A stretch of DNA of 64,000 bases from IMG/VR virus record IMGVR_UViG_3300037418_002142, positions 4,183-68,182 of that record; one strand, given 5' to 3'. Each line of letters opens with the position of its first letter. Position 1 is the first letter of the stretch. Below, piece by piece: positions 7,545 through 50,585 of the stretch. The DNA comes from a virus. Taxonomy: Duplodnaviria > Caudoviricetes. Both the position numbers and the translations under genes were made by a program. The notes under the pieces are model-generated. The model ran no database searches and was not told where the DNA came from. It worked only from the letters and a program-made list of their open reading frames with translations.

Positions 7545-7556
7545 AGGAGACACGCA

Positions 7557-7988
7557 ATGTCAATCACCAGTGCAAATGCCAGCTTCATTCTCGTCATCCC
7601 AGGTGTGTTCAGCTCCGGCGTTCAACTGCAGGGATTCGCCGTGGACGACATGTTCTCGATGGACCCAACCACACTTGCCGAGGGGCGACGCGGGGCCGAC
7701 GGTCAGACGGTGTACGGCTACGTGTACGAGCTGTCCAAGATGCGCATTGGACTGCTCGCCAATTCCAACGCGTTCCGTATTTTCCAGGCATGGAAACAGG
7801 CGCAGGACGCGGCTGTCGACGTGATCACGGCGAGCGGCACCATTATCATGCCGTCGCTGGGGCTCAAGACCAGTCTCGTCGATGGCAACTGCACCAATCT
7901 GGCCGCGTTCCCGCCGCATAAGAAGGTGGCGGAAAACGTCGAGCCGGAAGTGACGTGGGGTAGCTGGACCACCACAGCGACCAACTAG
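7557..7988 (+). CDS. Tail tube protein (DUF3277-like)
   Basis: ITSANASFIL, QLQGFAVDDMF and GADG motifs; follows the sheath gene. Confidence 0.85.
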   Translation: MSITSANASFILVIPGVFSSGVQLQGFAVDDMFSMDPTTLAEGRRGADGQTVYGYVYELSKMRIGLLANSNAFRIFQAWKQAQDAAVDVITASGTIIMPSLGLKTSLVDGNCTNLAAFPPHKKVAENVEPEVTWGSWTTTATN

Positions 7989-7989
7989 C

Positions 7990-8445
7990 ATGGCGGCCAA
8001 GGTAGACGTGCCGGGCATCGGCGGTCGCAAGGAAATAAGAATTAGAGCTGAGGATGGCCGCGACCGTGGCAAGATGTTCTTAATAAGGGAATGGGATGCG
8101 GCACGCGCAGAGCGCTGGGCGCTGCGCGTGCTGTTCGGGCTGGGCAAGGGCGGCGTGGAGTTGCCGCCAGAAATACTACAGCTCGGTGCGATGGGTATCT
8201 TCTACGCGGCGGGGTCGCAGGCACTGCGCATCCCGTCGCGCCTCGCGCTGCGACTCGCCGATGAACTTATGGAATGTGTAGAGCGCGTTGAAACAAAGAC
8301 CGTGCGTGCACTCGTGCCGGAAGATATCGAGGAAGTGTCGACGCGCATCAAGCTCAAAAAGGAAGTCCTAAAACTGACGTACGGTTTTTTTGTACCCGCC
8401 GCTCCCCAGACTTCGGCAACGGAGAGCGGCCCAAAAACACCCTAA
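7990..8445 (+). CDS. Tail assembly chaperone
   Basis: GRDRGKMFLIREWDA..AERWALR; between tube and tape measure; T7 run near the 3' end. Confidence 0.8.
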   Translation: MAAKVDVPGIGGRKEIRIRAEDGRDRGKMFLIREWDAARAERWALRVLFGLGKGGVELPPEILQLGAMGIFYAAGSQALRIPSRLALRLADELMECVERVETKTVRALVPEDIEEVSTRIKLKKEVLKLTYGFFVPAAPQTSATESGPKTP

Positions 8446-8618
8446 GGACAGTGAACGTGACGCCGGTTATGTCTGCCGTCATAGAGTCGCAGTATGCCAC
8501 CAAGCACGAGCTGGAAACAGTGTATGGGCTGGAAGGCATGTACGACTTGTTTGAAGTGTGCGCTGTAGCCGGCTATAACGAGTACCAAGCATCTAAGCAC
8601 GCCGCTAAAGGAGTGTGA
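8385..8618 (+). CDS. -1 frameshift extension of tail assembly chaperone (gpGT-like)
   Basis: Slippery T TTT TTT at 8385-8391; the -1 frame is open to TGA at 8616-8618 and encodes ATKHELETVYGLEGMYDLFEV; absent from the ORF track. Confidence 0.75.
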   Translation, partial: FFCTRRSPDFGNGERPKNTLRTVNVTPVMSAVIESQYATKHELETVYGLEGMYDLFEVCAVAGYNEYQASKHAAKGV

Positions 8619-8621
8619 TCC

Positions 8622-10400: not shown

Positions 10401-10401
10401 C

Positions 10402-11376
10402 ATGAGCTTCCAGTGGACAACAGATGATCAGAATGTAACAGCCGATTCAGGTAACTACACCGCGTCCGGCTCGTACACACCGCAATTTCCAAACGTTCCC
10501 AACTTGCCTGGGGTGCCGCTGCTGAAGCGGATGCAGGTTACGCCGCCACTGATTCCATTGAGCAGCGCGGGCAGCGGTCACGGTTCTGCTGAGTCGCTTG
10601 CAGCGATCGCTACCGCTTCTTTGCTGCCAGGCGGCTCAATTGGCTCCATTGGTGCCGCAGAGGCGGTTGCCAGCGCGATGGGGTTGAAAGGAATCGTAGC
10701 GTTCGGCAATCGCTTGTACGCGGGCATAGAACTTGACAGTTTGACCGCTGGGCCATTGCCGCAGTATTCTATCGTAAACGCGAATTCCCAAGCTTCAAAA
10801 CTAGTACCGGATTCGGTTATCGAGGTTGATTTCGATGCCGATTCTGACATGATGACGCACCCTATTGAGGAGGGCGGGTTCGCAGCGTACAACAGAATGC
10901 AGAACCCAAAGCGCATACGCCTCTTGCTGGCGTGCCGTGGGCAGAATATGTCGCGCGCAGCGTTTCTATCGACGCTCGAGAGCCTTAAAAACGGTACGGA
11001 TCTGTCGACTATTGCTACCCCAGATGCTGCATACTCTAACATGGGGCTCAAGAATTACGGCTACAGGAAGAGCGCAGAAAGGGGCGCGATAACAATTTGG
11101 GCAGATACCGTGTGGCTAGAAGGATTGTCGAGTACCGTTACAATTACGGATGTTGGGGCCGCGCAGCCGCAAGGCGCTGCTACAAGTAACCTCGGCGCGA
11201 TACAACCTCAGACGCCATCGAGTTCGCAGGTCGCTGCTGTTTCTGCACCGCCTACAGTGCCGTCGCCATTGCCGGGCGGGGTCACAATTACGGCGACTCG
11301 TTTGCCAGGAGCGCCGCCTCCTGGCATACCGGCGCCGTTGATTGAAGTCATGCCTGCTTCGGGGTATGCGTTTTGA
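10402..11376 (+). CDS. Baseplate/tail initiator (Dit-like)
   Basis: HPIEEGGFAAYNRMQNP motif; follows tape measure; Pro-rich C-terminus. Confidence 0.7.
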   Translation: MSFQWTTDDQNVTADSGNYTASGSYTPQFPNVPNLPGVPLLKRMQVTPPLIPLSSAGSGHGSAESLAAIATASLLPGGSIGSIGAAEAVASAMGLKGIVAFGNRLYAGIELDSLTAGPLPQYSIVNANSQASKLVPDSVIEVDFDADSDMMTHPIEEGGFAAYNRMQNPKRIRLLLACRGQNMSRAAFLSTLESLKNGTDLSTIATPDAAYSNMGLKNYGYRKSAERGAITIWADTVWLEGLSSTVTITDVGAAQPQGAATSNLGAIQPQTPSSSQVAAVSAPPTVPSPLPGGVTITATRLPGAPPPGIPAPLIEVMPASGYAF

Positions 11377-11693
11377 GCGCGTCATCGTTTTATTTGCAGA
11401 TATTGCCGGTGCAGCCGAAGCCTTCGCAAGTCTTCGATGTGACACTCGGTACTCAAAATTGCGAAATGACGCTGCAACAAATGTCTACAGGGATGTTCAT
11501 GAGTATTTCTGTAGATGGTGTGTCTGTTATTTCCGGCCGCTACTGCGTCGACCGCGTGAACATGGTGCGCCAGAAATATCTAGGGTTTGGCGGAGCGCTA
11601 TACTTTGTAGACACTACGCAACAGGGCAGTGACCCATACTACAGCGGGCTTGGGTCAAGATATCTGTTAGTGTATGAATGGGACCTGCCGTAA
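11373..11693 (+). CDS. Small baseplate protein
   Basis: PSQVFDVTLG, LYFVDT and GLGSRYLLVY motifs. Confidence 0.75.
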   Translation: MSASSFYLQILPVQPKPSQVFDVTLGTQNCEMTLQQMSTGMFMSISVDGVSVISGRYCVDRVNMVRQKYLGFGGALYFVDTTQQGSDPYYSGLGSRYLLVYEWDLP

Positions 11694-21634: not shown

Positions 21635-23392
21635 ATGATGAAGAAACTTCTATCAATCGCGCTACTGGCGACACTCGTTTCTGGGTGCGCCGTGCTGCGC
21701 CCCAGCGGCGGGTTTACCGCCGACAGCGGCCCCGGCGCAGTGGTTTCGCATGCCAAATTTCTTTCGGCCGTTCGGCGCTATGGCATCAGCCCGCCGGCCG
21801 CGCAGCAAGTCATTTACTGCAACGTCAGCACGCTGGCCGCGTGTAACGCACTGGTGAACCCTGGCAACGGTACGCAGGGTGACGCGGCTTACGTATGGGC
21901 CGGCAAGGACAATGCCAACTTCACGCAGTTGTATGACATGTTCGGCACGAGCAGCCATCTTGCTACGAATGGCAGTGTCGTGGCCACTGACATCATCGGG
22001 CTGTGGACGGGGTGCTCAGGCAGCGCGCCGGCGCTTGGCTATCAAGGCACCTGCGTTGCCGGGGGCGGCTCTGGGATCACGCAACTCACTGGAGATATCA
22101 CTGCCGGCCCTGGCAGCGGCAGCCAAGCCGCGACGCTCGCTGCGTCGGGCGTGACTGCTGGTAGTTACACGCTCGCGAACATAACTGTAGACGCGAAGGG
22201 GCGCGTAATTGCTGCGAGCAACGGTTCAAACGGTATTCCTAGCTGCACAGTCAACCAGCTTATATATTATGCGGCCACCGGTAGCACCGTTAGTTGCTTG
22301 TCACTCGGCACTAACTTGTCAATCAGCGCCGGCACGCTCAACGCGACTGCTGGAGGTGGCGGCGTTTCTTCATTCAGCGGCGATGGCGCACTGCTCAGCA
22401 ATTCGTTGTCTACGGGTGCCGTAACGGCGACGCTAGCTGCGACCGGTGTAGGCTATGGGGTGTGGGGCAATACTGGGGCGGCCAGCGGCGCCCCCGGCTA
22501 TCACGCGCTTTCGGCCTACCCGGCCGCAGCGTTTCCAGTATTCGGAGCTGCGAACGGTGGAACCGGCTCCGCGACAGTGCCAACTTCTGGGCAATTCCCA
22601 GTAGGTAACTCTGGCGGTACAGCTTACGCGCCGCAAAACATGAGCGGCGATTGTTTATTGGCTAGCACGGGTGCAATCACCTGCACGAAGACGAGCGGGA
22701 CAGCCTTTGGCACGTTCGCAACCGCGAACGCAGCTACCCCTCCAACTATAGGTGGCACCACGCCGGCCGCGGGATCCTTTACCACGCTTTCCTCGAGCGG
22801 CGGTACGACGACCACCAAGTCCGGTGCTGCTTCGACCTCGGCGGCGCTCTATACCGGTACACCTTACACGGCGGGCACGGGTACGACGGACTACCCGCTC
22901 ATCTACATCAACGCCGGCACTGCACCGACCACGTGGAGCACGAGCGGTACTGAAGAAGGTATAAATACCGCGACAGGGTTCGTTGGCAACTTCGTAGACT
23001 ACCACGTTAACGGGGGGGCTAGCGTCTACTCCGTAAATTATCAAGGTAAAGTCACCGGTGGAACTTACAACGGTACGACTATACCGAGTTCCGCTACTCT
23101 TACTCAAACTATCGCTTCCGGCACGGCGTCGCTCGGTACTACTGCTATCTCGAGCGGCGCTTGCGCGACCGTCGTTACCGTAGCCGGAACCGGCGTAGCA
23201 ACTACGGATGTTCTTGGGTGGGGGTTCAACGCTGACCCTACGGCAACGGTTGGCTACCAGGCTAGTTCTGCAGGCATGCTGACGATCATAGCTTACCCGA
23301 CCGCCGGCAACGTGAACTTCAAGGTCTGCAACAATACTTCCGCCAGCATTACGCCAGGGGCGGTAACTTTGAATTGGCGAGTGACTCGATGA
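21635..23392 (+). CDS. Lipoprotein-signal, Gly/Thr/Ala-rich fibre-like protein
   Basis: MMKKLLSIALLATLVSGC lipobox; SGVTAGSY..ITVDAKGRV fibre-type repeat. Confidence 0.6.
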   Translation: MMKKLLSIALLATLVSGCAVLRPSGGFTADSGPGAVVSHAKFLSAVRRYGISPPAAQQVIYCNVSTLAACNALVNPGNGTQGDAAYVWAGKDNANFTQLYDMFGTSSHLATNGSVVATDIIGLWTGCSGSAPALGYQGTCVAGGGSGITQLTGDITAGPGSGSQAATLAASGVTAGSYTLANITVDAKGRVIAASNGSNGIPSCTVNQLIYYAATGSTVSCLSLGTNLSISAGTLNATAGGGGVSSFSGDGALLSNSLSTGAVTATLAATGVGYGVWGNTGAASGAPGYHALSAYPAAAFPVFGAANGGTGSATVPTSGQFPVGNSGGTAYAPQNMSGDCLLASTGAITCTKTSGTAFGTFATANAATPPTIGGTTPAAGSFTTLSSSGGTTTTKSGAASTSAALYTGTPYTAGTGTTDYPLIYINAGTAPTTWSTSGTEEGINTATGFVGNFVDYHVNGGASVYSVNYQGKVTGGTYNGTTIPSSATLTQTIASGTASLGTTAISSGACATVVTVAGTGVATTDVLGWGFNADPTATVGYQASSAGMLTIIAYPTAGNVNFKVCNNTSASITPGAVTLNWRVTR

Positions 23393-25614
23393 AGCGAATA
23401 CTTTCTGCGCTGCTGCTTTGCGTGATTTCTGGCACGGCCCTAGCCCAAATGGGCATGGGGCCGGGGCCGGGCATAGGGGCGTTCAGTGCTGGGGGCGGTG
23501 GGCCGACTCTAGTATTCAACTACTCTTCTGGGTTTACTACTGGAGGACAGTCAAGCTTCGTAGGAACGACTGACGCTTGCAGCCCGTTGTTCTCCGGCAC
23601 GCAGATGCGGGTGAATAATGGTCTTGTCGGTCAACATCAGGCTTGCGGCGCGTGGTACACGACAAAGGTTAGCGACACTTCATTCACCAGCGACTTTACG
23701 ATCCAACTTGGCGCGGAATCTATCAGCGGCGAGCAGGCGTACACTGGTGATGGTACTACGAAGACATTTAGTTCCTACTCGTTGCAGCAAGGTATCCGTC
23801 CTGGAACTTTGACGGTAACAGCCGGCAGCGTTACTGGAACGGATAACGGCGTCGGTACAACCGGAACTATCAGCGGTACCGGCATTTCCGGGACTATCGA
23901 CTACAGAAGTCTCGAGCTTGATCTTACGTTTACAACCGCGCCCGCCAACGGGACGGCGATCACGGTAGCGTATCAAGCGCCGAATTACGGTATGGGGTTC
24001 GTAGTTCAGAACGACCCGCTGGGCACCGGGGCATCTGCAGACGCCAACGGCATCGGTATTTCTTCGTACACGTTCAACAACCCTGACCCATCGATCCATG
24101 ACAGCGTAGCGCTGATGTTCAACGCTACGCCAAATAGCGTTAGCGGCGCTTACGTCGTTGGCAGAACCCCAAGTATGATTGGGTTATACGTCAACGGCGG
24201 CCCTTATGTCAACGGGGGCATCAACCCTGTACAGGACATGCTGCCGCAAGGTATCAATCTGTACAGCGGCGACCCCATAGCCGTTCACGTGGTCTACGAT
24301 GGCACTACACTAACGGCTGATCTGAACGACACTACGAGCGGCGCGCGTGCTACATTCGCGTGGCCGATAAACATACCGGCCATAACGGGCGGAAGCACGG
24401 CGTACTTCGGGTTCGGAGCTGGCTCCATTCCTGCTGGAGTAGCCGCAGTAAATGGATGGGAATTGTGGACTGGGTACAATTCCAGACTTTCTCAAGTATC
24501 TTTCAGCCCAGCTCCTGGCCATTATACGACTTCCCAGTCTGTAACTCTAAGCGGCCCTGCTGGCTCTACAATTTACTATTCCACGAATGGAAATCCGCCG
24601 ACCACAAGTTCCAGTGTTTATAGCTCTGCAATCAGTGTCACTGCAAACGAGGCCATTCAAGCAATGGCCGTCAAGTCTGGTTCAACTAACAGCTTGACCT
24701 CAATCGGAAATTACCAAATTCAGGCAAGCGCAACGCCAGTCATCAATTTTGCCAGCGGGTTTTCCGGTGCCGCCAGTTTACTTCAGACTGCTGGCATCGC
24801 CAATATTAGTGGTTCAACTTTGATCCTTACAGATGGTGGAGATTACGCGGAAATTGGATCTGCATACTACGTAACTCCGGTTACAGTATCTACATTTTCT
24901 ACTACGTTTGTGATTAACTACAACGGAGGTAGCACCGGAGCACAGGAGGGGGCTGACTTTGTGATAATGAACCCTGGAGCCAGTCAGAATTTCAACACCA
25001 GGGATTTCCAATTGATCGCAGGGCTGTCTCCCGGTGCTTTGTCTAGCTCTACTTGTCAGAATAATTGTCCGAGTCCTGATAACTGGGGCGGCGCTTCTGG
25101 AACTTACGGACTGATGTTTGATGATAGTGAGGTACGAAATAACGTCACTTTCACCAACGGTTCGCCAACAGCTTCCTGGACCCCAGGGCTTACAGGATCA
25201 GTTGGAGTTCCGCTTGCGCTTGGCCGTCCGCTAGCCAGCGCAATAGTTTCAAACGCGTATACCCTCGGGCAAGGCGGGTATAGGGTCTTCGGTTACGGTG
25301 GCATTGGCAGCAGTATTGCTGTAGAAATTGATGACTGGGATGATTCCATATGCCTGGGGTTGAATGGCAAGTATTCAAATGATTGCGTGCAGGCGTCATT
25401 CAACTTCGGCTCTAACCCGCTACAAGTAACAATCACTTACGACGGCACAACCCTCACTGCGCAAATTGAAGATACCGTTACTTTGGACACCTACAGCCGT
25501 TCGTGGGCAGAAAATATACCCTCTATCGTTGGGGCGAGCACGGCATACGTTGGCTTGACTGGATCAACTTACGGCGGGTTAGCTCCACAAAAGATCACTA
25601 GCTGGACATTCTAA
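23389..25614 (+). CDS. Secreted-type protein with L-type lectin-like and chitobiase/FN3-like domains
   Basis: MKRILSALLLCVISGTALA signal peptide; two lectin-like modules (GMGFVVQN/GADFVI, SVAL.F/SIAVE.D, VHVVYDGTTL/VTITYDGTTL, AYFGFGAG/AYVGLTGSTY); FSPAPGHYTTSQSVTL..IYYSTNG..PT chitobiase-type module. Confidence 0.75.
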   Translation: MKRILSALLLCVISGTALAQMGMGPGPGIGAFSAGGGGPTLVFNYSSGFTTGGQSSFVGTTDACSPLFSGTQMRVNNGLVGQHQACGAWYTTKVSDTSFTSDFTIQLGAESISGEQAYTGDGTTKTFSSYSLQQGIRPGTLTVTAGSVTGTDNGVGTTGTISGTGISGTIDYRSLELDLTFTTAPANGTAITVAYQAPNYGMGFVVQNDPLGTGASADANGIGISSYTFNNPDPSIHDSVALMFNATPNSVSGAYVVGRTPSMIGLYVNGGPYVNGGINPVQDMLPQGINLYSGDPIAVHVVYDGTTLTADLNDTTSGARATFAWPINIPAITGGSTAYFGFGAGSIPAGVAAVNGWELWTGYNSRLSQVSFSPAPGHYTTSQSVTLSGPAGSTIYYSTNGNPPTTSSSVYSSAISVTANEAIQAMAVKSGSTNSLTSIGNYQIQASATPVINFASGFSGAASLLQTAGIANISGSTLILTDGGDYAEIGSAYYVTPVTVSTFSTTFVINYNGGSTGAQEGADFVIMNPGASQNFNTRDFQLIAGLSPGALSSSTCQNNCPSPDNWGGASGTYGLMFDDSEVRNNVTFTNGSPTASWTPGLTGSVGVPLALGRPLASAIVSNAYTLGQGGYRVFGYGGIGSSIAVEIDDWDDSICLGLNGKYSNDCVQASFNFGSNPLQVTITYDGTTLTAQIEDTVTLDTYSRSWAENIPSIVGASTAYVGLTGSTYGGLAPQKITSWTF

Positions 25615-25904: not shown

Positions 25905-26423
25905 CTAGAAGCTACGACGCGCCAGTATTACGGCGCGGGCTTGACAAACGGCGTCCGACAAGGGGTCGTGCGCCATCAGGTCGTGCCATGCCGACTGTAG
26001 ATCCACATTACGCCGGCGCGCTTCGGCGTAGATCGTGCGGCAACTTCTACTTGCCTTGTAGCTGACAGGGAATGCGTCAGTCCGCATGCGCTGCCACCAA
26101 CTCCGCGTAATAACAACGTCAAAGTCGGGGTCGTTGGCCCAAAGCTCCCCATCGCAATAGTCGACCAGAAAGCCACCCAGCGTTTCAGCCGCGGCGGCTG
26201 CCGTGCAAACGCCGCTCGTCATCGTCTTGCGTGCTTCCTCCGACTGGCCCAGCCACCATGCCACGGTACCAGGGTCAATGTGGCCATGCCAGTCCGATGA
26301 TTTGATAACACATTTCGTTGAAGCGGTAATTCCTTCCTCATTGAAAGCTACGAGCCCGAACGCGGTAACGCACGCATCAGGCCGCGTGCTCAAAGTCTCG
26401 ATATCCAACATCACAGATTTCAC
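25905..26423 (-). CDS. 3'-5' exonuclease (DEDD, Rv2179c/DUF5051-like)
   Basis: MLDIETLST, TV.WW..Q, W.N...FD, R..RT and H..L.DA..QA motifs. Confidence 0.85.
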   Translation of the reverse strand: MKSVMLDIETLSTRPDACVTAFGLVAFNEEGITASTKCVIKSSDWHGHIDPGTVAWWLGQSEEARKTMTSGVCTAAAAAETLGGFLVDYCDGELWANDPDFDVVITRSWWQRMRTDAFPVSYKASRSCRTIYAEARRRNVDLQSAWHDLMAHDPLSDAVCQARAVILARRSF

Positions 26424-26688: not shown

Positions 26689-26919
26689 TTAGGCGGGGGC
26701 TAGGCCATGCCACGGGGCGGCCCGGCTAGGGGTGCGCCAATGGCCACGGGCGCCACGGCGCCAGCCCCGTGCCTCCATCTCAGCCACCGTTAGGCAATGC
26801 CGATCATCGGTGCCGGGTCGTCCGGTGCGGTGTTTGTCGAACGCGTATGTCGAGTTGAAGTACTCCTTGCATGTTGGGCACTGGCAGCGATCGCCGGACA
26901 ACTTAAGAGTGGCCGTCAC
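26689..26919 (-). CDS. FDxHR zinc-binding protein
   Basis: CQCPTC...F....AFDKHR....HC motif. Confidence 0.75.
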   Translation of the reverse strand: MTATLKLSGDRCQCPTCKEYFNSTYAFDKHRTGRPGTDDRHCLTVAEMEARGWRRGARGHWRTPSRAAPWHGLAPA

Positions 26920-27509
26920 TTCGCGGCCTCCGACATGCCGTCCAGCCGCAACGGCGCTTGGTTACCCCCTTCGCTGATGAACGACACCATGCCAACGCCT
27001 ATCTCGCCATCGTCGTAGCGCTTTACGCGCACTACTAGTCGATGCCATTCACCGTCCTGGTACGGCAAGCGTTTCAGCGTCGGCAGCAGGGATGGCCCCA
27101 CTTCGGCCATCGTGGTCATGGGCGGCATTGTCGCGTCGCTGTCCGACGCCTCGGCACCCGTTGGATCAAACTCCTTCTTGTTGAACTTCTCTACGGCATC
27201 CATCAGTAACGCGCGCACCATGGCCGGCTTGCCGTCCTTCAGCAGCTTCTGTAGTTCGACGTACTTCTGAAGTACATGTACCGCCTTCTCCAGATCCTGG
27301 ATGCCTGCCTTGTCCTTCCAGCGCATAACATAGCGCAGCACTTGCGCCTGAAAATAATCCAAATCTAGCAGCGCTACAATATCCCAATGCTCGATTGCCA
27401 TTCCTTTGTAGTGTTTCCCACCGACCTGCCGGCTATTCGCGCTCGTGCTCACTGAAGCTACCATGTGTGACCTCTGCCCCGTATTCGCCATCGTACTGTT
27501 TCTGTTCAA
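26916..27509 (-). CDS. DUF3310/SaV-like protein (predicted nucleotide kinase family)
   Basis: QVGGKHYK..IEHWD...RY..R...K.GIQDLEKA...L motif; start codon uncertain. Confidence 0.8.
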   Translation of the reverse strand: MNRNSTMANTGQRSHMVASVSTSANSRQVGGKHYKGMAIEHWDIVALLDLDYFQAQVLRYVMRWKDKAGIQDLEKAVHVLQKYVELQKLLKDGKPAMVRALLMDAVEKFNKKEFDPTGAEASDSDATMPPMTTMAEVGPSLLPTLKRLPYQDGEWHRLVVRVKRYDDGEIGVGMVSFISEGGNQAPLRLDGMSEAAK

Positions 27510-28002
27510 GTGTCGTCTTGACCAAGTCGTATAATTCCAATGCCGCAGGCGTCACGTCCGTAAGCCCACGGCTCGCTATTCCCTTCAGCGCATTTCGCGC
27601 CATGCTGGCCATATGCCGATTGCCGCTATCGCACTCTTCGATGGCGAACAGCGCCAGTTCCATGTAATCGCAGTATTTCAGTACTCCCTTTTCGATCGCC
27701 GTAATGTGCACCTCCAACTCGTACTCGTCGCGCACGCTGGCCTCCACCCCGCGCAGCGCTTCCTCCAACAGTTTGAACCGATGCTTGGTTGGCGCCGGCA
27801 CGTCGCCAGTCACGGCCTCCGGCACGTCGTGAAACAGCGCTGCCTCCCACAAGCGGGCCGAGGCCTCGGGGTATACGGTGCGCAGCACGGCCAGCACGCC
27901 AAACGTATGTTCCCCAACAGTTTGCGGATGCTGCGACCGTGCGTTGTGGCAGCGCAGCACGCGAGCCGCGTTGCGCAACAACTTAAGGCGTTTGTAGTTC
28001 AC
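27433..28002 (-). CDS. HD-domain 5'-deoxynucleotidase (YfbR-like)
   Basis: R.H......QTVGEHTFGV, AALFHDVPEAVTGDVPAP.K, K.CD.MEL motifs; probable GTG start at 28002. Confidence 0.85.
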   Translation of the reverse strand: MNYKRLKLLRNAARVLRCHNARSQHPQTVGEHTFGVLAVLRTVYPEASARLWEAALFHDVPEAVTGDVPAPTKHRFKLLEEALRGVEASVRDEYELEVHITAIEKGVLKYCDYMELALFAIEECDSGNRHMASMARNALKGIASRGLTDVTPAALELYDLVKTTLEQKQYDGEYGAEVTHGSFSEHERE

Positions 28003-29044
28003 GCCGTCGCTCCAGCCATTGCATCGCAGCCAACTTCCAGTCCGATGCCTCGCACGCCAGCAGCTCTTCCTGCGCCGCATTGATGCGCTCGTTGCGGGTG
28101 TTCCATACAGTGCCTACGTTCTTCCAGTGCCGCCACGCTTTCCACAGCGGCAGCGCCACGTCGCGCAGGTACGGCACGTTAAGGCGCAGAGTTATTGGCT
28201 TGCTCTCGCTCGTCATGTCGATGCGCGCGCACGACATGAAGCACGTCAGCTCGTTCAGCCATGCTTGCGGCGAGCTGTCCCACCCTGTCCACAATGGGTA
28301 CGGCCTTACACAGTGCGTGCGATACGGGTCGAAATCGACGTTCGCTTCTTGCAGCCGCTTCCATACCTTGCCGCTCTCGTCGTCCAGATACAAGTGCAGG
28401 CTGTCGCTGAACTGGCGGTACACGCCGACCTCCGCCCCCACCGCGCCGGCCACCCATTCCTGCAGAGTGCTGAACTGTACGGCGTTGGCGCCATACGCAC
28501 CCCACACGGCGTCGTTACTCCGGCACAGCACGCTCATGTTCAGCTTGCCGTCGCGCATCTTCAGGAAGATCAGATCGTTGCACGGCATGTCCCTGGTCTT
28601 GGTGCCAAGATCGCTCAAGCAGTCCCATATCTGCAGGACTACCTGCCGCGTGGCGGGCTCGTGCCGCAGCATGCTGACCGATTTCAGCAACTGATCCATT
28701 GCGAAGAATTTGCGCAGTCGGTACCCATACGGAGCATGAAATCGTTCGCCGTCATCGCTGTATTTCGCGATGTTGCCGTTGAAGAATTTTAGGAACGCCA
28801 CGTCGTCATCGCCGTTCAGAATCCACAACGCTTCGAAGAAGTGGAAGAACGGGTTGGCGTCGCGCGTCGAATCGAACAGCACGCGCTGTACCGGCTTGCG
28901 GTAGTCCGTTATCAGCGGCCCATCGTGTTCCAGCGTGGGCATGCCGCGCGGGCTTACGTTGGGCCAGTATTGCCAGCCGCTGTGGCGTATCAGCCACCAC
29001 AACGCTTCGTTAACATCCTCGACCTGAATAACTCTTGCCGTCAT
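27983..29044 (-). CDS. Thymidylate synthase-fold enzyme, probable dUMP hydroxymethylase
   Basis: RDANPFFHF.EALW.L.G, PYGYRLR, TRQVVLQIWD, DMPCN (catalytic Cys), RSNDAVWGAYGANAVQFS (Asn at the dU-specificity position), SLHLY. Confidence 0.88.
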   Translation of the reverse strand: MTARVIQVEDVNEALWWLIRHSGWQYWPNVSPRGMPTLEHDGPLITDYRKPVQRVLFDSTRDANPFFHFFEALWILNGDDDVAFLKFFNGNIAKYSDDGERFHAPYGYRLRKFFAMDQLLKSVSMLRHEPATRQVVLQIWDCLSDLGTKTRDMPCNDLIFLKMRDGKLNMSVLCRSNDAVWGAYGANAVQFSTLQEWVAGAVGAEVGVYRQFSDSLHLYLDDESGKVWKRLQEANVDFDPYRTHCVRPYPLWTGWDSSPQAWLNELTCFMSCARIDMTSESKPITLRLNVPYLRDVALPLWKAWRHWKNVGTVWNTRNERINAAQEELLACEASDWKLAAMQWLERRRELQTP

Positions 29045-29985
29045 ATGACACCCTCGTTTCGTAACATTTTTTTCACCTTTCGCCGTAGCTCGTCTTTGTA
29101 GTCGCAGCCTCCGAATTCTTCGTGCTGCTCCACGCGTATCTCGTCGCGGTGGCGCAAGCAATAGCGTATGTCAGTGACGTCGCGCACGGCCCATGGGCCG
29201 ACTTCTAGATTGGCGCGGCGTAGCTGTACGCTCGTCGGCTTGTCGAACACCATGGGCAGATGCGCGCTCAGCATCTCGTAGAACCTATTGGCCGGGCTGC
29301 AGAATTCTTTATGAGAACGCCGGTCTTCGATGTACAGCCCGAGACCGTGACGCGCGCACTCTTCTCGCAAATCTATATTGGTGTCAGCTTCTTCGATGGT
29401 GCAGCCACGTCGATAGTAGTTTTCCCACGGGCCGGTGCGCGGCACGTTCAGTGTCACTGCGTACCCGCGCGGGGACCACAGATAACGGTCAAATGCATCT
29501 TTACGATCCTTGCGATAACTGCCATAGTAGAACAGGTCGCCATTGTGCGGCGCGCGCTTCTTCCACGGCAGCGGGGCGTAGGTCAGCGCGTTCCAGTTCA
29601 CGTAGCGGCGACGACCCCATCCTTCGCTGAACTTTGGCGCTTCGCACGTCGACCAGATTTCAATGGGTGGCAACCCGCGCCGATGACGCTTGCGAAACGC
29701 GGCGCGGAATGGGCTGCCGCCTTCACTTGTGAACCGCGGCGGAATAATGGTGTAGTCGTTTTGTACCCAGACGATGCGTTCCGCGCGCACAACCATACGA
29801 GCCAGCAGCGGTAGATGCTTGCAGAACGCGTAGGCGCCGTTGACGATGAACAGCGTGTCAACTACTGGCGCCGCGTCGTACACTATGGGCATGCGGCCCC
29901 ACTTGGCCAGCGCGTGCGCAATGCGATGGCTGGCTATGACGCTATCGTGCGACGGCTTGGCAAAGGTCCAGATGGCGGCGCGCAT
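29041..29985 (-). CDS. T4 beta-glucosyltransferase-like DNA glycosyltransferase (GT-B)
   Basis: Collinear matches to T4 BGT as recalled: DTLFIVNG~DRLIVVNS, WVQNDY~YLFTDI (catalytic Asp), YYGSYRKDR~YGGSFRSGQR, GLYIED~ALIIGD, NRFYEMLS..PMVFD~LRVWETMA..VMLID; ATGA-coupled to the hydroxymethylase. Confidence 0.72.
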   Translation of the reverse strand: MRAAIWTFAKPSHDSVIASHRIAHALAKWGRMPIVYDAAPVVDTLFIVNGAYAFCKHLPLLARMVVRAERIVWVQNDYTIIPPRFTSEGGSPFRAAFRKRHRRGLPPIEIWSTCEAPKFSEGWGRRRYVNWNALTYAPLPWKKRAPHNGDLFYYGSYRKDRKDAFDRYLWSPRGYAVTLNVPRTGPWENYYRRGCTIEEADTNIDLREECARHGLGLYIEDRRSHKEFCSPANRFYEMLSAHLPMVFDKPTSVQLRRANLEVGPWAVRDVTDIRYCLRHRDEIRVEQHEEFGGCDYKDELRRKVKKMLRNEGVI

Positions 29986-29988
29986 TGA

Positions 29989-30351
29989 CTAAACCTTTCC
30001 ATCAGCGCGGCGGCCGGTGTTTGGTACGACTTGCACTGCACGGTCGTCCCACAGCTCGATCATGCCGTAATCCTTCTCGCACACGACCTCAAGCCGGGCT
30101 CCAAGATGCTGCTCGGTCCAGTCCTGTATCGTGTTGCGGATGACTGCTATTTCTGAAGTCGTAGCTCTTCCACTATTCTTAGACACGCGCGCGGTGAACA
30201 CCTTCACCGTTTTGCCTTCAGCAATCCAGGCGCGCACTCGCAACGCCATCGGCAGTATAGGAGCGCCAATATGTAACGCGCTCACCCACCCGCTATACTG
30301 CGCCAGCGTACCGTCCAGGTCTACGCCGATCCAACCATTAGTAGCGTTCAT
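29989..30351 (-). CDS. HAD-superfamily phosphatase-like protein
   Basis: IGVDLDGTLA motif I, FTAR motif II, K...ELWDDRA motif IV. Confidence 0.8.
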   Translation of the reverse strand: MNATNGWIGVDLDGTLAQYSGWVSALHIGAPILPMALRVRAWIAEGKTVKVFTARVSKNSGRATTSEIAVIRNTIQDWTEQHLGARLEVVCEKDYGMIELWDDRAVQVVPNTGRRADGKV

Positions 30352-30355
30352 AAAC

Positions 30356-31096
30356 CTACCCCGTAGCCATGCCGTAGCCGTAGCGCGCCGCCATGCCGTA
30401 CACGTTCGCACAGAGCGCTGGATTCACGTCTGCCAGTTTGTGCATGTCGAGCGGTTCGTAACGGCGATATCCGGTATGCTTGTTTCGCGCCACGATGCCG
30501 GGCCACGGCGTACCAGTTGATAGCCCCAGCAGCGCGCGCAGCCTTTTCTGTACACCCGGCGTTGCCACGTCCTCAATGCGAAACGTGTAGTCCGCCTGTT
30601 CCTCCGCATACTTGTTCAGATAGTACCACGCAAACGCGCAGCGCTCTAGCTGCGAAAACTTCGGCTTGCTGCGCAGCGGTATAACGTAGGTATCCTCGAA
30701 CCACTCCCAGATAATGCCAGGAAACACCTTGCCCATGGCCGGTATGACGTGGCGCGGGTCGCGCACGACGTGCAGAATCACATCGAACGTGAAGTCGCTG
30801 CGCCGACAGCCGGGGTAACAGCGCGTCGGGTCCCACGGCCACCACGGATACCACGCGGCATCCTTCGGTATGAACCACAGTCCGGCCGTGCCGTCGGCGC
30901 CCATGCGTTCGTCCTGTACGTCGAGGCCCAACTCCTGCAAGTTGAGCGCTAGGCTGCTCGTGCCGCAACGGCCGCTCCCCATAATCAGCACTTTCTTGCG
31001 TTGCCGTTGCTTCGGGCGCAGTACGGGCACCCCGCGCTTTTCCGCTTTGCTACGCAAGCCCCAGCGCTGCTTCGGCAGCGTGTATTGTTCTCTCAT
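30356..31096 (-). CDS. PAPS-dependent sulfotransferase-fold protein
   Basis: 5'-PSB loop IMGSGRCGTSSL, 3'-PB motif LHVVRDPRHVI, AW..LN, FRIED, C-terminal RYGY. Confidence 0.75.
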   Translation of the reverse strand: MREQYTLPKQRWGLRSKAEKRGVPVLRPKQRQRKKVLIMGSGRCGTSSLALNLQELGLDVQDERMGADGTAGLWFIPKDAAWYPWWPWDPTRCYPGCRRSDFTFDVILHVVRDPRHVIPAMGKVFPGIIWEWFEDTYVIPLRSKPKFSQLERCAFAWYYLNKYAEEQADYTFRIEDVATPGVQKRLRALLGLSTGTPWPGIVARNKHTGYRRYEPLDMHKLADVNPALCANVYGMAARYGYGMATG

Positions 31097-31293
31097 GGCA
31101 ATTTCTGCACCCGTAACGTCTTGCGGCACACGCTCCGCGGTATCTTTATGAGCGCGACGCCAAACTTAGGCTGATACGCTTCGCGGCCGCAAAGCAGGCA
31201 TCGGTATACCGGCACGTCCGTTGCCCAGCCGGTGCCCACCTCTACCGCTGCGTGGATGTCGATTCTGCAAAGCGCGTGCAGAAACTTGCTCAT
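31093..31293 (-). CDS. Small Cys/His protein
   Basis: LCRIDIH...YRCLLCG; ATGA-coupled on both sides. Confidence 0.55.
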   Translation of the reverse strand: MSKFLHALCRIDIHAAVEVGTGWATDVPVYRCLLCGREAYQPKFGVALIKIPRSVCRKTLRVQKLP

Positions 31294-31598
31294 GCCGCTG
31301 TCCTTCGGTTGCCGAACAGTATGTTTGGCACGTTGCCATCCTTGAACCCGCTGCCACGGCACGCGCTGCACTCGCGCTGCGGTTGCACGTCGGGCGGCGG
31401 CCAACTGCTATCCCATTCCGGGTCCTTCGGGCTGACAAAGCCGGTGCAGGCGCCGCACTCGCCGCGAATAACACCGTGTGAGCATTCGTCGTTCCACCAG
31501 TTGGCCACACCGTCGCCCGCGCCTTTGCAGTGCGGACAGCAGGCGGCTTGCAGGGTTATCAGAGCGCGCCCGTAAGCGCTTTTGTGTTCTATAGCCAC
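31290..31598 (-). CDS. DnaJ-type zinc-finger protein
   Basis: CPHCKGAG, CGACTG and CSACRGSG repeats. Confidence 0.65.
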   Translation of the reverse strand: MAIEHKSAYGRALITLQAACCPHCKGAGDGVANWWNDECSHGVIRGECGACTGFVSPKDPEWDSSWPPPDVQPQRECSACRGSGFKDGNVPNILFGNRRTAA

Positions 31599-31759
31599 GG
31601 CAAATCAGCCTCCTCGCATCGAAAGCCGCAGTTGCGGCACTCATACCAAGAACATTCACCAGTCCATGCTTCCTCTTCCCTACGCTCCATGTCGTGGTCG
31701 CACCATAGTCGCTGCCACCACAGTCGGAGCGCGCGCAGCGCAAGCTTCAGTCGTTCCAC
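31589..31759 (-). CDS. Small Cys/His protein (56 aa, below ORF-track cutoff)
   Basis: GTG start; MERLKLALRALRLWWQRLWCDHD...YECRNCG; fills the gap with overlaps at both ends. Confidence 0.5.
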   Translation of the reverse strand: MERLKLALRALRLWWQRLWCDHDMERREEEAWTGECSWYECRNCGFRCEEADLPWL

Positions 31760-32679
31760 GGCAATTCCTCCTGCAACACGGGCCGGTAGATGGAACGTGG
31801 GCGTCCCTCGCCGTTCTTGACGCGCATGTACTTGTCGAACTCACAGAGCGAGTGTTCGATCTCGCGCATCTCGAACGGCCAATCGCACAGAAAGACGTGC
31901 TTGCCCAGCGCGCTTTCGGACGCGATGGCGGGGCGCGCTTCTACGAGCAACTGTCGCATCGCAGCAATGTAATCAGGTTTCTTACCGCTATAGTGACGAT
32001 CACCGGTAAGCAAACGATGTATGCCACGGCGAGCCCCAGGACCAGGATTAGCCCAGCTATTAACATCACGAGCGTGGCTAAGCACGCGAGTATGCCTGAG
32101 ATCACAAGCGATTTCATAGCCAATGAATCCTCCAATGGTGGGGTACGCTTGCAACAGCTCCACGGCCCGCTCCATGCTGGCGTACTTCTTTATCTTGCGG
32201 GTGAGCTTGCGTCGTTCCTTGTGCATGGCCTCCAACGCTTCGCAGATAACCTGTATCTTTGGGTCCGTCCGGCCGGCGTTTGGTATGATATACGCACCCG
32301 TGAATATTTGCTTGCCTTCCTCTTGTCGCTTGGTCAGCAAGTCGATAGCCTTGGCCATGTCCCAGCGGCGCAGCCCGTAGAACAGCGCGTCGTAGGTTTC
32401 AGGCCAGTTGAACAGCCGGAACTGCGCGCACTGGAACAGAATGTCCTCATCTTCGAGATTCCGGCCTTTGTCGAGTAGCGTCACGTAGCGTTTGGTCCAC
32501 TCCTGCGTCACACGATCGAGCTGCCGGTACACGTTGGTGAACTTAAACTCCCGCAGTATCTTGTCCTTGGTCCACGGCCACTTGTCACCGGCCTTGCGAT
32601 TTAAGTAGATGCGATGGCGTTCGTTGATCCACCCCCAGAACGCTTTGATCTGATTCTTCTGCCACTTGAATGATTTCAC
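31747..32679 (-). CDS. aGPT-Pplase1 / 5-hmdU DNA kinase-family helical protein
   Basis: F..WINERH.IY..R....PWT.D.IL..FKFTNVYRQLDRVT, FRLFNW..T, FTGAYI, IGGFIGYEIACDL, NPGPGA.RG, EIEHSLCEFDKY.R motifs. Confidence 0.85.
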   Translation of the reverse strand: MKSFKWQKNQIKAFWGWINERHRIYLNRKAGDKWPWTKDKILREFKFTNVYRQLDRVTQEWTKRYVTLLDKGRNLEDEDILFQCAQFRLFNWPETYDALFYGLRRWDMAKAIDLLTKRQEEGKQIFTGAYIIPNAGRTDPKIQVICEALEAMHKERRKLTRKIKKYASMERAVELLQAYPTIGGFIGYEIACDLRHTRVLSHARDVNSWANPGPGARRGIHRLLTGDRHYSGKKPDYIAAMRQLLVEARPAIASESALGKHVFLCDWPFEMREIEHSLCEFDKYMRVKNGEGRPRSIYRPVLQEELPWND

Positions 32680-47916: not shown

Positions 47917-48843
47917 TCATGCCACGTGCTCCTGGTGCGCTATCGCAGCGTGCGCTTCCACTTCCTTCCAGGCGCGCTCATACTCAGCCAGCATCTGCTC
48001 CTTGCTCAAGCAATTGCGCGTGTGCAGCACCAACTCTCCACCAGCGCGGCGCTCCTCCAGCGTGGCGGGGAGCTGTTCGTGGCCACCGGGGTAGTAGCCA
48101 TAGTGTTCCAACGTCCTGCCATCCAACAGCGTGTGAAACGACCAGAAGCCGCACGCTCGCCAAAAGCCGGCTGTTACCATGCTGCACAAGCGATCCAGCA
48201 CCAACGGGTCCTGCGTGCGTTTTATGCACCATGCGCTCGTACTCTTGTTGTTGCTACCGATCGGCGCATTGCGCCATACGCTCATTGCACTGCCGCACAC
48301 CCACACCTCAATCACCTTACCGGCACGGGCCAAGCGGTCGCACAGCGCAACGGCCAGCGCAGCACGCCACAAGGCGGCTTCCTGCGTCATGTGCCACGGG
48401 GTGCCAAGATCCAGTGCCATCGTCACGCGCTTCGTGCTCACCGTATGTACGTCTTCACGCACGGGGCGCTCCCACGCCCGACCGATATCGCCGTTCCACA
48501 CTCTGGTCATATCCAGTGTGTCGCCGTGATCATCCCGGTGACGCTTGCGGCGACGCAGCGCAGCGCGACTTGGAAAGTTAGGAATCTCGAGTTCCAGATC
48601 GGCAGTTAGTCTTTCCAGCTTCCCGCGCATCTCCGGCCAGCCGTACTCCACCTTGTTGAATACTTCGGGCACGCCGCCAGCGCACCCGTACCAATCTATA
48701 TTACCGCGCCAGCCGCCAGCGCTCATGCGCTCCCCAGCCTTGCGCGCTTCCGCTATGTCGGCGACAAACTGCTCGAAGGTTTCCCATTCCATACTGAGCT
48801 GCCCGTGCGCCACCGTGGCGCGCATGTTGCGTGTAGTTTTCAT
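47917..48843 (-). CDS. VWA/CobT-like partner of the AAA ATPase
   Basis: Coupled downstream of a MoxR AAA gene; G..LD..R...G; WRAALA..L.D.L...G..IEVW. Confidence 0.6.
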   Translation of the reverse strand: MKTTRNMRATVAHGQLSMEWETFEQFVADIAEARKAGERMSAGGWRGNIDWYGCAGGVPEVFNKVEYGWPEMRGKLERLTADLELEIPNFPSRAALRRRKRHRDDHGDTLDMTRVWNGDIGRAWERPVREDVHTVSTKRVTMALDLGTPWHMTQEAALWRAALAVALCDRLARAGKVIEVWVCGSAMSVWRNAPIGSNNKSTSAWCIKRTQDPLVLDRLCSMVTAGFWRACGFWSFHTLLDGRTLEHYGYYPGGHEQLPATLEERRAGGELVLHTRNCLSKEQMLAEYERAWKEVEAHAAIAHQEHVA

Positions 48844-50585
48844 GCTACTAACCTGCGCTCTGCATCGGTCCAACCGGTGAAGTACGATCGCTCCCATTCA
48901 GGCTGCGCCCAGTTGTAGCGCTCCGTCATGATGCCCAGGTCCTTGATCACGCGGGTCGACATGATGCGGCGCAGCTTGTTCTCGCGAATCTTGTCGCGAA
49001 TACCCCACGCCCACTCGCACAGTTCGCCGGTACCCAGTTCCTCTTCGACCTCCTTGCAATAATCCATGGTGATCATGCCGACCTTGAACCGGTCCAGCGT
49101 CGCGGCGTCCAGTTGGTTGCGACCAACGTACATTGCGTCAGCGCCGTTGCCGTAAGTGTTAGCCGCGGCGATCAGCACAAAATCCTTGTGCTTCTTTACC
49201 ACCGGGTTATCGTAACGTTGGTCCACTGTGTACGACGAGTTAGCGATTGCCTTGTTGATATAGGTGAACAGATTAGGGTCGCCAGCGTCGACCTCGTCTA
49301 GCAGCATGCCGCCGCCTTTTTCGTACCGAATCATGAATGGCGACGGCACATGAACGAATGCGCCGTTCTTGCCGATGGGCAGCAGCCGGCCGTTGAACAC
49401 GCTCTCGGACATGCCCTCACTGCAAGACTGGTCGCTGTAGTCCAAGCCCAGCGCTTCGGCTACCTTTTCGGCGAGGAATGTCTTGCCGCAACCGGCGGGG
49501 CCGACCAGCAGAATAGGAATGCGCGCACTGGCCAACTCTACCATCCGCTGAAACTCCGGTGGTAGCACGCCCTTGATCTTCCTAACCTTGGCGCCATCCT
49601 TGATCACGATGGGAGCGCGCTTATCAGCCGCTTCCGCGATCGCCCGCTTGGCGAAGTCCACCATCTTCGGCATGTGCTTCTCGACACCCTTGTCGAGCGC
49701 CTCAATCGCCTTGGTCACGGCTTCATCGCCGGCTTTGTCCAGGTCGCCGCTGTATTGGTTGAGTATGTTGCTCAGCAACTCGACGTAGCGCTTTTCCTGG
49801 TCGGTCTCGGCCGGCTTGCTGCCGTCCTTCTGCAGGCAAATCAACTCATACCAGCGTTGGGCCGCGCCAAGGTCGCGCAGTGCCGCTTCCTTTAGCAGGT
49901 TGGCGCGGTCAGCCGGTGCGGCGGCCTTAATGGCACCAAAGCAGCCCAGCGCATCCGCCAGCATGTACTGATGATACTTGTGGATCTGACTAAAGTCAGC
50001 GTCCTGCACCTTAGGTGGCAGGAAGCGGTTGCGTGGGATTGCCGCGCCAGAGCGGCGCGTTCTCGTAAAGCCCATGTTAGTCTCCTCCTCAGAGAGTGAA
50101 TGGGTTGCAGTTAAAATGTCTCGAGCAGTTTCTTCATTGGTTTTGGTGGGAAAGGTTTGTGCTTCCTCTTCTAAATCGTCGAGTATGATCGCGTCTAACT
50201 TCTTGCCGTCTAGCTTAGCCGGTAGGGAACTGTCGAATGTTTGCATGTACATACGCGCCATCACTTCGGCTGACGGCATGTACTTCTTCGCTAGCTCCCA
50301 TAAATCCATTATCTGTGGCGGATCCTTGTAGTCAGTATCTTCGACCGTGAAGTCCAAAATTACTGTTTCCATGCCCTGACTGGCAATGCTCACGCTGGCA
50401 ATGCTCACGTCCTTTACAGTCAGGCCGCCAAGGTAGCCCTTGCACGCAGTGGCCAACTCAGACTTTATGGCCTCCAACTTCAGCATGGCGGTCAGATGCG
50501 GCGATTGCGAAATGTGCCTTATATTCTGCGCGACATGCGCGTTTTCCGCTATCGGCAGCGCGATCTGTACGTTGCGCGTCGTCAT
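48840..50585 (-). CDS. MoxR/CobS-like AAA+ ATPase; probable main start at 50075
   Basis: LLVGPAGCGKT Walker A, LLDEVDA Walker B, AANTYG.G...YVGRNQLDAATLDRF, STR. Confidence 0.9.
   Translation of the reverse strand: MTTRNVQIALPIAENAHVAQNIRHISQSPHLTAMLKLEAIKSELATACKGYLGGLTVKDVSIASVSIASQGMETVILDFTVEDTDYKDPPQIMDLWELAKKYMPSAEVMARMYMQTFDSSLPAKLDGKKLDAIILDDLEEEAQTFPTKTNEETARDILTATHSLSEEETNMGFTRTRRSGAAIPRNRFLPPKVQDADFSQIHKYHQYMLADALGCFGAIKAAAPADRANLLKEAALRDLGAAQRWYELICLQKDGSKPAETDQEKRYVELLSNILNQYSGDLDKAGDEAVTKAIEALDKGVEKHMPKMVDFAKRAIAEAADKRAPIVIKDGAKVRKIKGVLPPEFQRMVELASARIPILLVGPAGCGKTFLAEKVAEALGLDYSDQSCSEGMSESVFNGRLLPIGKNGAFVHVPSPFMIRYEKGGGMLLDEVDAGDPNLFTYINKAIANSSYTVDQRYDNPVVKKHKDFVLIAAANTYGNGADAMYVGRNQLDAATLDRFKVGMITMDYCKEVEEELGTGELCEWAWGIRDKIRENKLRRIMSTRVIKDLGIMTERYNWAQPEWERSYFTGWTDAERRLVA

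Follow-up and report, generated by a model that had tools for sequence, protein, structure and literature searches.

Glycosyltransferase and sulfotransferase genes in a phage hydroxymethyluracil cluster: a candidate route to a sulfated thymine derivative

The question raised by the locus

Which base does a phage place in its DNA when its genes for hydroxymethyluracil synthesis stand beside a glycosyltransferase and a sulfotransferase, instead of the kinase and amino-acid transferases of the characterised pathways? M6-type phages are reported to make bases derived from 5-hydroxymethyluracil (hmU) (PMC5889632), and the question arises from a run of genes on the - strand at positions 26689-32679 of a 64,000-nucleotide stretch of phage DNA (hereafter the window), which corresponds to bases 4183-68182 of the 68,182-bp IMG/VR virus record IMGVR_UViG_3300037418_002142. 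Direct terminal repeats are found at the ends of this record, which therefore represents the complete genome of an uncultured soil phage; the window has a GC content of about 59%, and its sequence is contained in two rhizosphere metagenome runs, one of which may be its source, and the sequencing runs listed as containing it include no RNA dataset. In our judgement the chances are about even that the run encodes a two-stage thymidine hypermodification, in which hmU is made as a nucleotide, glycosylated after its incorporation into DNA and then O-sulfated on the attached sugar.

An earlier sequence-only reading of the window had named eight gene classes in this run, from a member of the 5-hydroxymethyl-deoxyuridine kinase family through small zinc proteins, a sulfotransferase, a HAD phosphatase, a glycosyltransferase (GT), a hydroxymethylase of the thymidylate synthase (TS) fold and an HD nucleotidase to a DUF3310 protein. 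Gene-by-gene evidence from profiles, motifs and folds confirms this observation, all eight classes being present in the claimed order on the - strand, and partly supports the interpretation that had been built on it. Most adjacent genes share 4-20 bases or have a gap of 3-4 bases between them, and the same gene order is found in L004, a relative whose proteins are about 79% identical and which was also used for refining the gene starts. The modification genes sit in the replication module, away from the structural genes; the phage has a family-A DNA polymerase (PolA) of its own, and further genes code for an SNF2 helicase, a PD-(D/E)XK nuclease and a protein resembling primase-helicases.

Synthesis of hydroxymethyluracil

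The TS-fold enzyme (353 aa; 27983..29044, -; PF00303; phrog_5131, 3e-98) carries the catalytic Cys in a PCND motif and a uracil-type Asn in RSNDAVWGAYGAN, which aligns with the substrate Asn of thymidylate synthases, whereas the cytosine-specific MilA has Asp at this position. Its best solved relative is a hydroxymethylase, the CMP hydroxymethylase MilA (3.7e-21), thymidylate synthases following at 1e-9 or weaker, and at the DNA level it resembles a gene of Bordetella phage CN1 annotated as thymidylate synthase/dUMP hydroxymethyltransferase. The dUMP-type Asn, the hydroxymethylase as nearest solved structure and the orthology to genes of the M6/CN1 type thus uphold the earlier proposal of hmU synthesis, and we infer that the chemistry is hydroxymethyl transfer to dUMP.

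Two nucleotide-pool genes follow. The HD-domain, YfbR-like 5'-deoxynucleotidase (189 aa; 27433..28002, -; PF12917, 3.6e-13; phrog_6047, 8e-34) is found after the TS homologue in most related loci and may serve to deplete the dTMP pool. The DUF3310 protein (26916..27464, -, its start possibly lying as far up as 27509) scores below the cut-off of PF11753 and matches PHROG families annotated as nucleotide kinases (phrog_5839, 2e-19; phrog_236, 'nucleotide kinase', 1e-14); it is kept after the TS-HD pair in at least 30 loci, including the M6-type loci L002 and L003, and is a putative kinase of hmdUMP. Searches of this genome revealed neither an APS (adenosine 5'-phosphosulfate) kinase nor a dCMP deaminase.

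The glycosyltransferase

By itself, the glycosyltransferase of the window (314 aa; 29041..29985, -) has no match in Pfam or PHROG, and its profile has none in the PDB. More than 370 relatives were found, on contigs of up to about 120 kb (several of 55-80 kb), and 10 of 70 such relatives match PF13524. An AlphaFold2 (AF2) model based on a 70-sequence alignment reached a pLDDT of 94, and the Foldseek ranks 1-6 for this model are all occupied by the β-glucosyltransferase (BGT) of phage T4 (E 6e-11 to 2e-8; TM 0.64-0.68), followed by the T4 α-glucosyltransferase (AGT). The family-invariant residues R158, R161, R234 and E237, which lie in the motifs YYGSxRxxR and NRFYE, align to positions 191, 195, 269 and 272 of BGT when the family profile is compared by hhalign with the T4 b-gt product (probability 22%). 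We take Arg191, Arg195, Arg269 and Glu272 of BGT to be the residues that bind the phosphates and ribose of UDP, and the alignment then provides moderate evidence that UDP-binding residues are conserved in the phage enzyme. The invariant Asp77 (in QNDY) is a candidate for the catalytic base of the N-terminal domain, which in BGT is Asp100. Fold and aligned residues together bear out the description of this protein as BGT-like, and we regard it as a predicted GT-B DNA glycosyltransferase.

How constant its companions are can be seen from 58 glycosyltransferase loci (54 from IMG/VR, three from assemblies, and the window), which were scanned with self-built hidden Markov models (HMMs). Within 10 kb of the glycosyltransferase gene, HMUDK_hel (the present name of the family formerly called aGPT-Pplase clade 1) is found in 49/58 loci and the TS homologue in 47/58, and most of the loci without them are cut by contig ends; neither the amino-acid:DNA transferase (ADDT) nor Nmad5 occurs in any of the 58. 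Three versions of the family are seen, one bare, one accompanied by a kinase and one by a sulfotransferase. Bare operons of GT, HMUDK_hel, TS and HD exist, for example in L043-L049, so the glycosyltransferase needs neither an activating enzyme nor an activated substrate, and direct O-glycosylation of hmU is the simplest reading.

The core is also present in a cultured phage. Escherichia phage vB_EcoM_IME392 (MH719082.1) encodes at 7001-11616 a BGT-like glycosyltransferase, HMUDK_hel, a 240-aa open reading frame (ORF), TS and HD. The same distant glycosyltransferase homologue is found in the cultured phage EP_H11, where the comparison covered the glycosyltransferase, and in IME392 it covered the gene neighbourhood as well; both proteins match the family HMM at 1.5e-41 and are 24% identical to the glycosyltransferase of the window.

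The sulfotransferase

The gene at 30356..31096 (-) encodes a protein of 246 aa, which we identify by its fold and cofactor motifs as a sulfotransferase of the type using 3'-phosphoadenosine 5'-phosphosulfate (PAPS). Alone, the protein gives a weak Pfam result, a match of its 5'-phosphosulfate-binding (PSB) loop to PF17784. An exhaustive HMMER search brought together 612 relatives, and among 72 aligned relatives PF13469 is matched by 22, PF17784 by 8 and PF00685 by 3. The AF2 model (pLDDT 95) retrieves sulfotransferases in most Foldseek matches, and the 50 matches listed by VIA-align are sulfotransferases without exception (Z 8.9-11.9), the best being those of CurM (Z 11.9) and OLS (Z 11.7) and tyrosylprotein sulfotransferases (Z about 10.5). 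In the family consensus the 5'-PSB loop reads GxGRSGT, a Glu some 20 residues further on is invariant, and the motif for binding the 3'-phosphate (3'-PB) is VRxPxxxIxS. The window protein has the loop GSGRCGT with R43 (G40, R43, G45 and T46 are conserved in at least 90% of the family), the invariant Glu63, and VRDPxxxIPA as its 3'-PB motif with the family-invariant R112 and P114. The identification made from the letters alone is therefore borne out by both structure comparisons and by the cofactor motifs, of which the 3'-PB motif has Ala in place of its usual Ser.

A single-sequence search of the PDB yielded no match for the sulfotransferase, the glycosyltransferase or the HAD protein, and the sulfotransferase profile found weak sulfotransferase matches there. 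A tblastn search with the window protein had no match in any of the deposited phage genomes searched, IME392 and EP_H11 included. We also considered whether the protein might be a diverged P-loop kinase of 5-hmU DNA (5-HMUDK) and rejected this: BLASTP against the kinases of Stenotrophomonas phage Sonora and CN1 gave no similarity, the loop has no Walker Lys, and the VIA-align matches listed are all sulfotransferases. Two distant relatives, P0209 and P0247, are fusion proteins, one with a Prim-Pol domain, the other with GT2 and TPR repeats.

Among the 58 glycosyltransferase loci the sulfotransferase is found in four only, the window, L004, L005 and L022; the window and L004 proteins are 79% identical, and apart from this pair the four are 26-41% identical to each other. 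A narrow sulfotransferase alignment searched against IMG/VR gave 3 loci, and in all six more loci (L061-L066) were collected whose sulfotransferases belong to this family at varying distance, some closer and some more remote. The TS homologue is present in 10/10 of the sulfotransferase loci and HMUDK_hel in 9/10, the tenth being cut at its start. A glycosyltransferase is likewise present in 10/10, with three or more families represented (GTX, other GT-B and TAGT); in L061-L066 it is either a GT-B enzyme resembling PF13524 or PF00534 or else the TET-associated glycosyltransferase PF20691. Sulfotransferase and glycosyltransferase genes adjoin or lie within about 1 kb of each other in 9/10 loci; in L065 they are about 7 kb apart, and there the glycosyltransferase adjoins HMUDK_hel. 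The genes for glycosyltransferase, sulfotransferase and hydroxymethylase thus do co-occur in related genomes; a failure to do so was one outcome by which the sequence-only reading would have been refuted. In L005, a full-length APS kinase (8948-9562; PF01583, 1.9e-53) stands between the glycosyltransferase and HMUDK_hel, a gene that would have no evident use there unless PAPS were being spent.

In a quick maximum-likelihood tree of the glycosyltransferases, those linked to a sulfotransferase fall together in a single deep clade with weak support (SH-aLRT 82), which also holds L027, a contig ending right after its glycosyltransferase gene, and those linked to a kinase form other clades. The kinase in question, a 5-HMUDK-like P-loop kinase, was detected by an iterated HMM in 27/58 glycosyltransferase loci (within L006-L041), its gene and that of the glycosyltransferase often being coupled in translation; one of its members exceeds the cut-off of PF18748. 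These kinase-coupled loci suggest a phospho-glycosyl or glycosyl-phospho variant of thymine.

As a separate observation, L005 carries a sulfotransferase and a radical SAM/SPASM gene just upstream of its glycosyltransferase. Among the loci with a sulfotransferase, L005, L061, L063, L065 and L066 all have such a radical SAM/SPASM enzyme, directly adjoining the sulfotransferase in three of the five and lying within about 7 kb of it in the others; it is absent from the window genome.

HMUDK_hel and the missing amine pathway

The gene at the upstream end of the run (31747..32679, -) encodes a stand-alone HMUDK_hel of 310 aa, which matches PF18723 with 210 bits (cut-off 25; E 5.5e-62) over profile positions 4-277 of 281; its profile has no match in the PDB. 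The label 'kinase family', which had been attached to it, holds as far as membership in PF18723 is concerned, but the protein consists of the helical, non-kinase domain only, and the complete genome contains no P-loop kinase domain: PF18748 (HMUDK_HMUD1) has no match there at E <= 1, and the iterated kinase HMM has none in the window. Since the PF18723 gene is not a kinase and no kinase domain is present, the phospho-hmU product that had been offered as one option finds no support. Correctly noticed, by contrast, was the lack of the amino-acid:DNA transferase and radical SAM steps, PF18724, PF18757 (Nmad5) and PF04055 being, like PF18748, without a match in the complete genome.

SP10 has this domain and the kinase joined in one fusion protein (PMC5889632, Table 3). 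In the glycosyltransferase loci HMUDK_hel is the constant companion of the GT, and it probably recognises or flips hmU; a complex prediction of HMUDK_hel with the glycosyltransferase scored 0.28 against a mark of 0.32. Judging by gene order, gp55 of M6 is the putative HMUDK_hel copy of that phage. This gp55 is dispensable for modification in vitro (PMC8989533).

A catalytic role has to be considered as well. Cys279-Glu280 is invariant among 30 sequences of the family and lies in the motif LCEFDKY, which resembles the ADDT motif LCKWKSH; in ADDT the Cys is catalytic, as in PaMx11 gp46 (Cys247) (PMC11472151). The nearest clusters outside PF18723 in the ESM Atlas are those of ADDT (PF18724; score 0.92). 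An hhalign comparison of HMUDK_hel with ADDT, on the other hand, gave a partial alignment with a probability of 1.4% that stops short of the Cys motif.

The proposed pathway and its alternatives

Combining these data with what is known of the families, we propose the following course. Before replication, the TS homologue would convert dUMP to 5-hmdUMP, the DUF3310 protein together with host kinases would raise this to the triphosphate, the HD nucleotidase would drain dTMP, and the family-A polymerase of the phage would synthesise hmU-DNA. On the DNA, the BGT-like glycosyltransferase would take a UDP-sugar as donor and attach its sugar at the hydroxymethyl group of hmU, giving a glycosyl-hmU like that of base J, with HMUDK_hel probably recognising or flipping the base, and the sulfotransferase would use host PAPS to O-sulfate the attached sugar, yielding sulfo-glycosyl-hmU. 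For both steps on DNA we rely on fold, motifs and gene neighbourhood. That the sulfate would go to the sugar on the DNA and not to hmU itself is favoured because every sulfotransferase locus has a glycosyltransferase, usually adjoining and of whatever family, and because glycosyltransferase, sulfotransferase and HMUDK_hel are all strongly basic (pI about 9.6, compared with about 6 for the nucleotide enzymes). If uracil bore the sulfate ester at its hydroxymethyl carbon, the result would be a reactive, hydrolysis-prone electrophile and an unlikely final base in the virion.

Several observations weigh against this pathway. No sugar-nucleotide genes are found within the cluster. In the window sulfotransferase and its three closest relatives, the Ser of the 3'-PB motif (usually Ser120, present in at least 90% of relatives) is replaced by Ala and the usual His62 before Glu63 by Asp, and its activity or cofactor use could therefore differ. 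Kinase and sulfotransferase never occur together (27 kinase loci, 10 sulfotransferase loci, overlap 0), and the closest solved folds of the phage protein belong to 'activating' sulfotransferases: those of CurM and OLS sulfate a hydroxyl group in order to create a leaving group. The exclusion and the activating-type folds would fit a sulfation of hmU itself equally well. In such a scheme, the main rival, which would put the reactivity of this ester to use, the sulfotransferase would O-sulfate the hydroxymethyl group of hmU in place of the phosphorylation by 5-HMUDK, the invariant Cys of HMUDK_hel would attack C6, expel the sulfate and install a nucleophile, and the glycosyltransferase would have as its substrate either the hmU left over or the newly installed group. 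The likeness of LCEFDKY to the ADDT motif and the neighbourhood of the two families in the ESM Atlas speak for it, and if true, it would mean a second activation chemistry for DNA hypermodification, with HMUDK_hel as a Cys-dependent transferase. We nonetheless consider it rather unlikely: every sulfotransferase locus also has a glycosyltransferase, usually adjoining and whatever its family, no gene for a donor nucleophile or its tailoring is present, the hhalign comparison does not reach the Cys, and the many loci with glycosyltransferase and HMUDK_hel that have neither kinase nor sulfotransferase indicate that HMUDK_hel is independent of an activated substrate.

The same Ser-to-Ala and His-to-Asp replacements could also mean that the sulfotransferase of this phage has lost its activity or been turned to a different use and that the DNA ends with glycosyl-hmU or plain hmU; most of the glycosyltransferase family (54/58 loci) dispenses with the enzyme. 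Against this improbable outcome stand an intact, translationally coupled gene, its strong conservation in L004, a confident AF2 model and the retention of Arg43 in the PSB loop, Glu63, Arg112 and Pro114. Slightly less credible again is that glycosyltransferase and sulfotransferase act on a target other than DNA, be it a virion protein, a glycan of the host envelope or a small molecule, and share the operon for historical reasons only; the distant sulfotransferase relatives fused to GT2 and TPR repeats are indeed typical of cellular glycan synthesis, yet in fold the glycosyltransferase is matched best by the two DNA glucosyltransferases of T4, the linkage to HMUDK_hel and TS is kept across very divergent loci and gene orders, all three proteins are basic, and the genes lie in the replication module instead of among the structural genes. 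Finally, the TS homologue might be an ordinary thymidylate synthase, in which case the DNA would contain thymine and the other genes would have unrelated targets. Methylase and hydroxymethylase chemistry are inseparable by sequence alone and no dCMP deaminase is encoded; the greater closeness to MilA than to any thymidylate synthase, the grouping with M6/CN1-type genes and the unfailing company of HMUDK_hel, a family tied to hmU clusters in these searches, make this very improbable.

Relation to known systems

At the DNA level, the closest deposited relatives are members of the Mesyanzhinovviridae such as CN1 and Sonora, the similarity being confined to the TS-homologue and HMUDK_hel genes; a backbone related to this family is a trait shared with the M6/YuA-type systems. 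The described pathways of M6/YuA, PaMx11, ViI, PhiW-14 and SP10 (PMC5889632; PMC8989533) have in common with our proposal the pre-replicative synthesis of hmU by a TS homologue and the post-replicative tailoring on DNA, and M6-type loci also share the TS-HD-DUF3310 trio and the clade-1 aGPT-Pplase (HMUDK_hel). In CN1 and Sonora the arrangement is the canonical one of TS, Nmad5, HMUDK_hel, P-loop kinase and, further on, ADDT. The window phage, in contrast, is devoid of the P-loop 5-HMUDK, PF18724, Nmad5 and tailoring enzymes dependent on pyridoxal phosphate, radical SAM or flavin, and has glycosyltransferase and sulfotransferase instead; its predicted product is an O-glycoside with sulfate, whereas that of the M6/ViI type is an amine adduct.

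With T4, whose BGT (GT63) and AGT act on 5-hydroxymethylcytosine (hmC) in DNA, the window enzyme shares the GT-B fold, the alignment of the C-terminal YYGSxRxxR and RxxE motifs and a gene adjoining that of a pyrimidine hydroxymethylase, as b-gt adjoins gene 42. It differs by an identity of about 14% to BGT, by its lack of Pfam membership and by the low hhalign probability given above; the hydroxymethylase is of the dUMP type, the expected acceptor is hmU instead of hmC, and the window-type glycosyltransferase is always paired with HMUDK_hel, which T4 does not have. Base J shares the predicted core product, a glycosylated hmU in DNA. In the window phage, however, hmU would come from a TS homologue before replication and not from oxidation of T in DNA by JBP/TET enzymes, the glycosyltransferase belongs to another family, and a sulfotransferase is added. 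The CurM, OLS and tyrosylprotein sulfotransferases resemble the phage protein at Z 10-12 over about 175 residues and share with its family the PSB loop with Arg, the acidic residue about 20 positions on and the RxP...S 3'-PB motif; the phage protein is 14-17% identical to them, smaller, equipped with a conserved basic N-terminal segment and, unlike them, has its close relatives only in phage hmU clusters. IME392 has the GT-HMUDK_hel-TS-HD core and EP_H11 the glycosyltransferase in common with the window, and both differ in their myovirus-size genomes and in having no tblastn match to the sulfotransferase.

A full-text search of the literature yielded glycosylated 5hmC and 5-hydroxycytosine, clusters of a T-dioxygenase with a glycosyltransferase, and amine-type thymidine hypermodifications; it retrieved no sulfotransferase acting in DNA modification, no sulfated natural DNA, no description of the class combining this glycosyltransferase with HMUDK_hel, and nothing on how the DNA of IME392 or EP_H11 is chemically modified. 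That the earlier reading knew of no described phage base with this chemistry accordingly agrees with the literature searched. If the pathway is confirmed, sulfation would be added to the known chemistry of phage DNA, and the product, a strongly anionic and bulky derivative of thymine, would be a likely barrier to restriction and other DNA-targeting defences. Its core, a BGT-like glycosyltransferase with HMUDK_hel, is widespread and bears on the role of the clade-1 aGPT-Pplase, the cultured IME392 offers a ready experimental handle on it, and DNA glycosyltransferases and a DNA-directed sulfotransferase could become tools for labelling hmU.

Remaining genes of the run and its surroundings

Between the sulfotransferase and the glycosyltransferase genes lies that of a small capless HAD-type phosphatase of about 120 aa (29989..30351, -, the start possibly up to 30411), recognised by its DLDGT and WDD motifs and by phrog_415 (4e-7), a family corresponding to the phosphatase part of PNK, with no match in the PDB or Pfam. 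L004 and four loci of the kinase type have homologues of it. A function as 3'-phosphatase of 3'-phosphoadenosine 5'-phosphate is unsupported, the gene being present also in kinase-type loci, which have no sulfotransferase.

Three small ORFs separate HMUDK_hel from the sulfotransferase: one of 56 aa (31589..31759, -; 54% identity to L004 by tblastn), a zinc-ribbon-like protein of 102 aa with three CxxCxGxG-type motifs (31290..31598, -; weak match to DnaJ_CXXCXGXG, 72% identity to L004) and one of 66 aa (31093..31293, -; supported by comparison with L004). As they are kept only in this nearest relative, we left them out of the general module. The run ends with a 76-aa phage FDXHR zinc-binding protein (26689..26919, -; PF24071, 6e-7), which is 71% identical in L004.

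Just downstream of the cluster, the window encodes an Rv2179c-like 3'-5' exoribonuclease (25905-26423, -), a family also seen near the cluster in L004, L006 and one further contig. Beyond it, a stretch of lower GC content (0.53) contains the gene for a Gly/Thr/Ser-rich protein of 746 aa whose N-terminus is signal-like (23374-25614, +); it marks the switch from the + to the - strand, and its product probably serves as tail fibre or for receptor binding. At 47917-50585 (-), the genes of a DUF7192 protein and of a MoxR-like ATPase (AAA_5) are paired, and DUF7192 is found at the edge of L005 as well.

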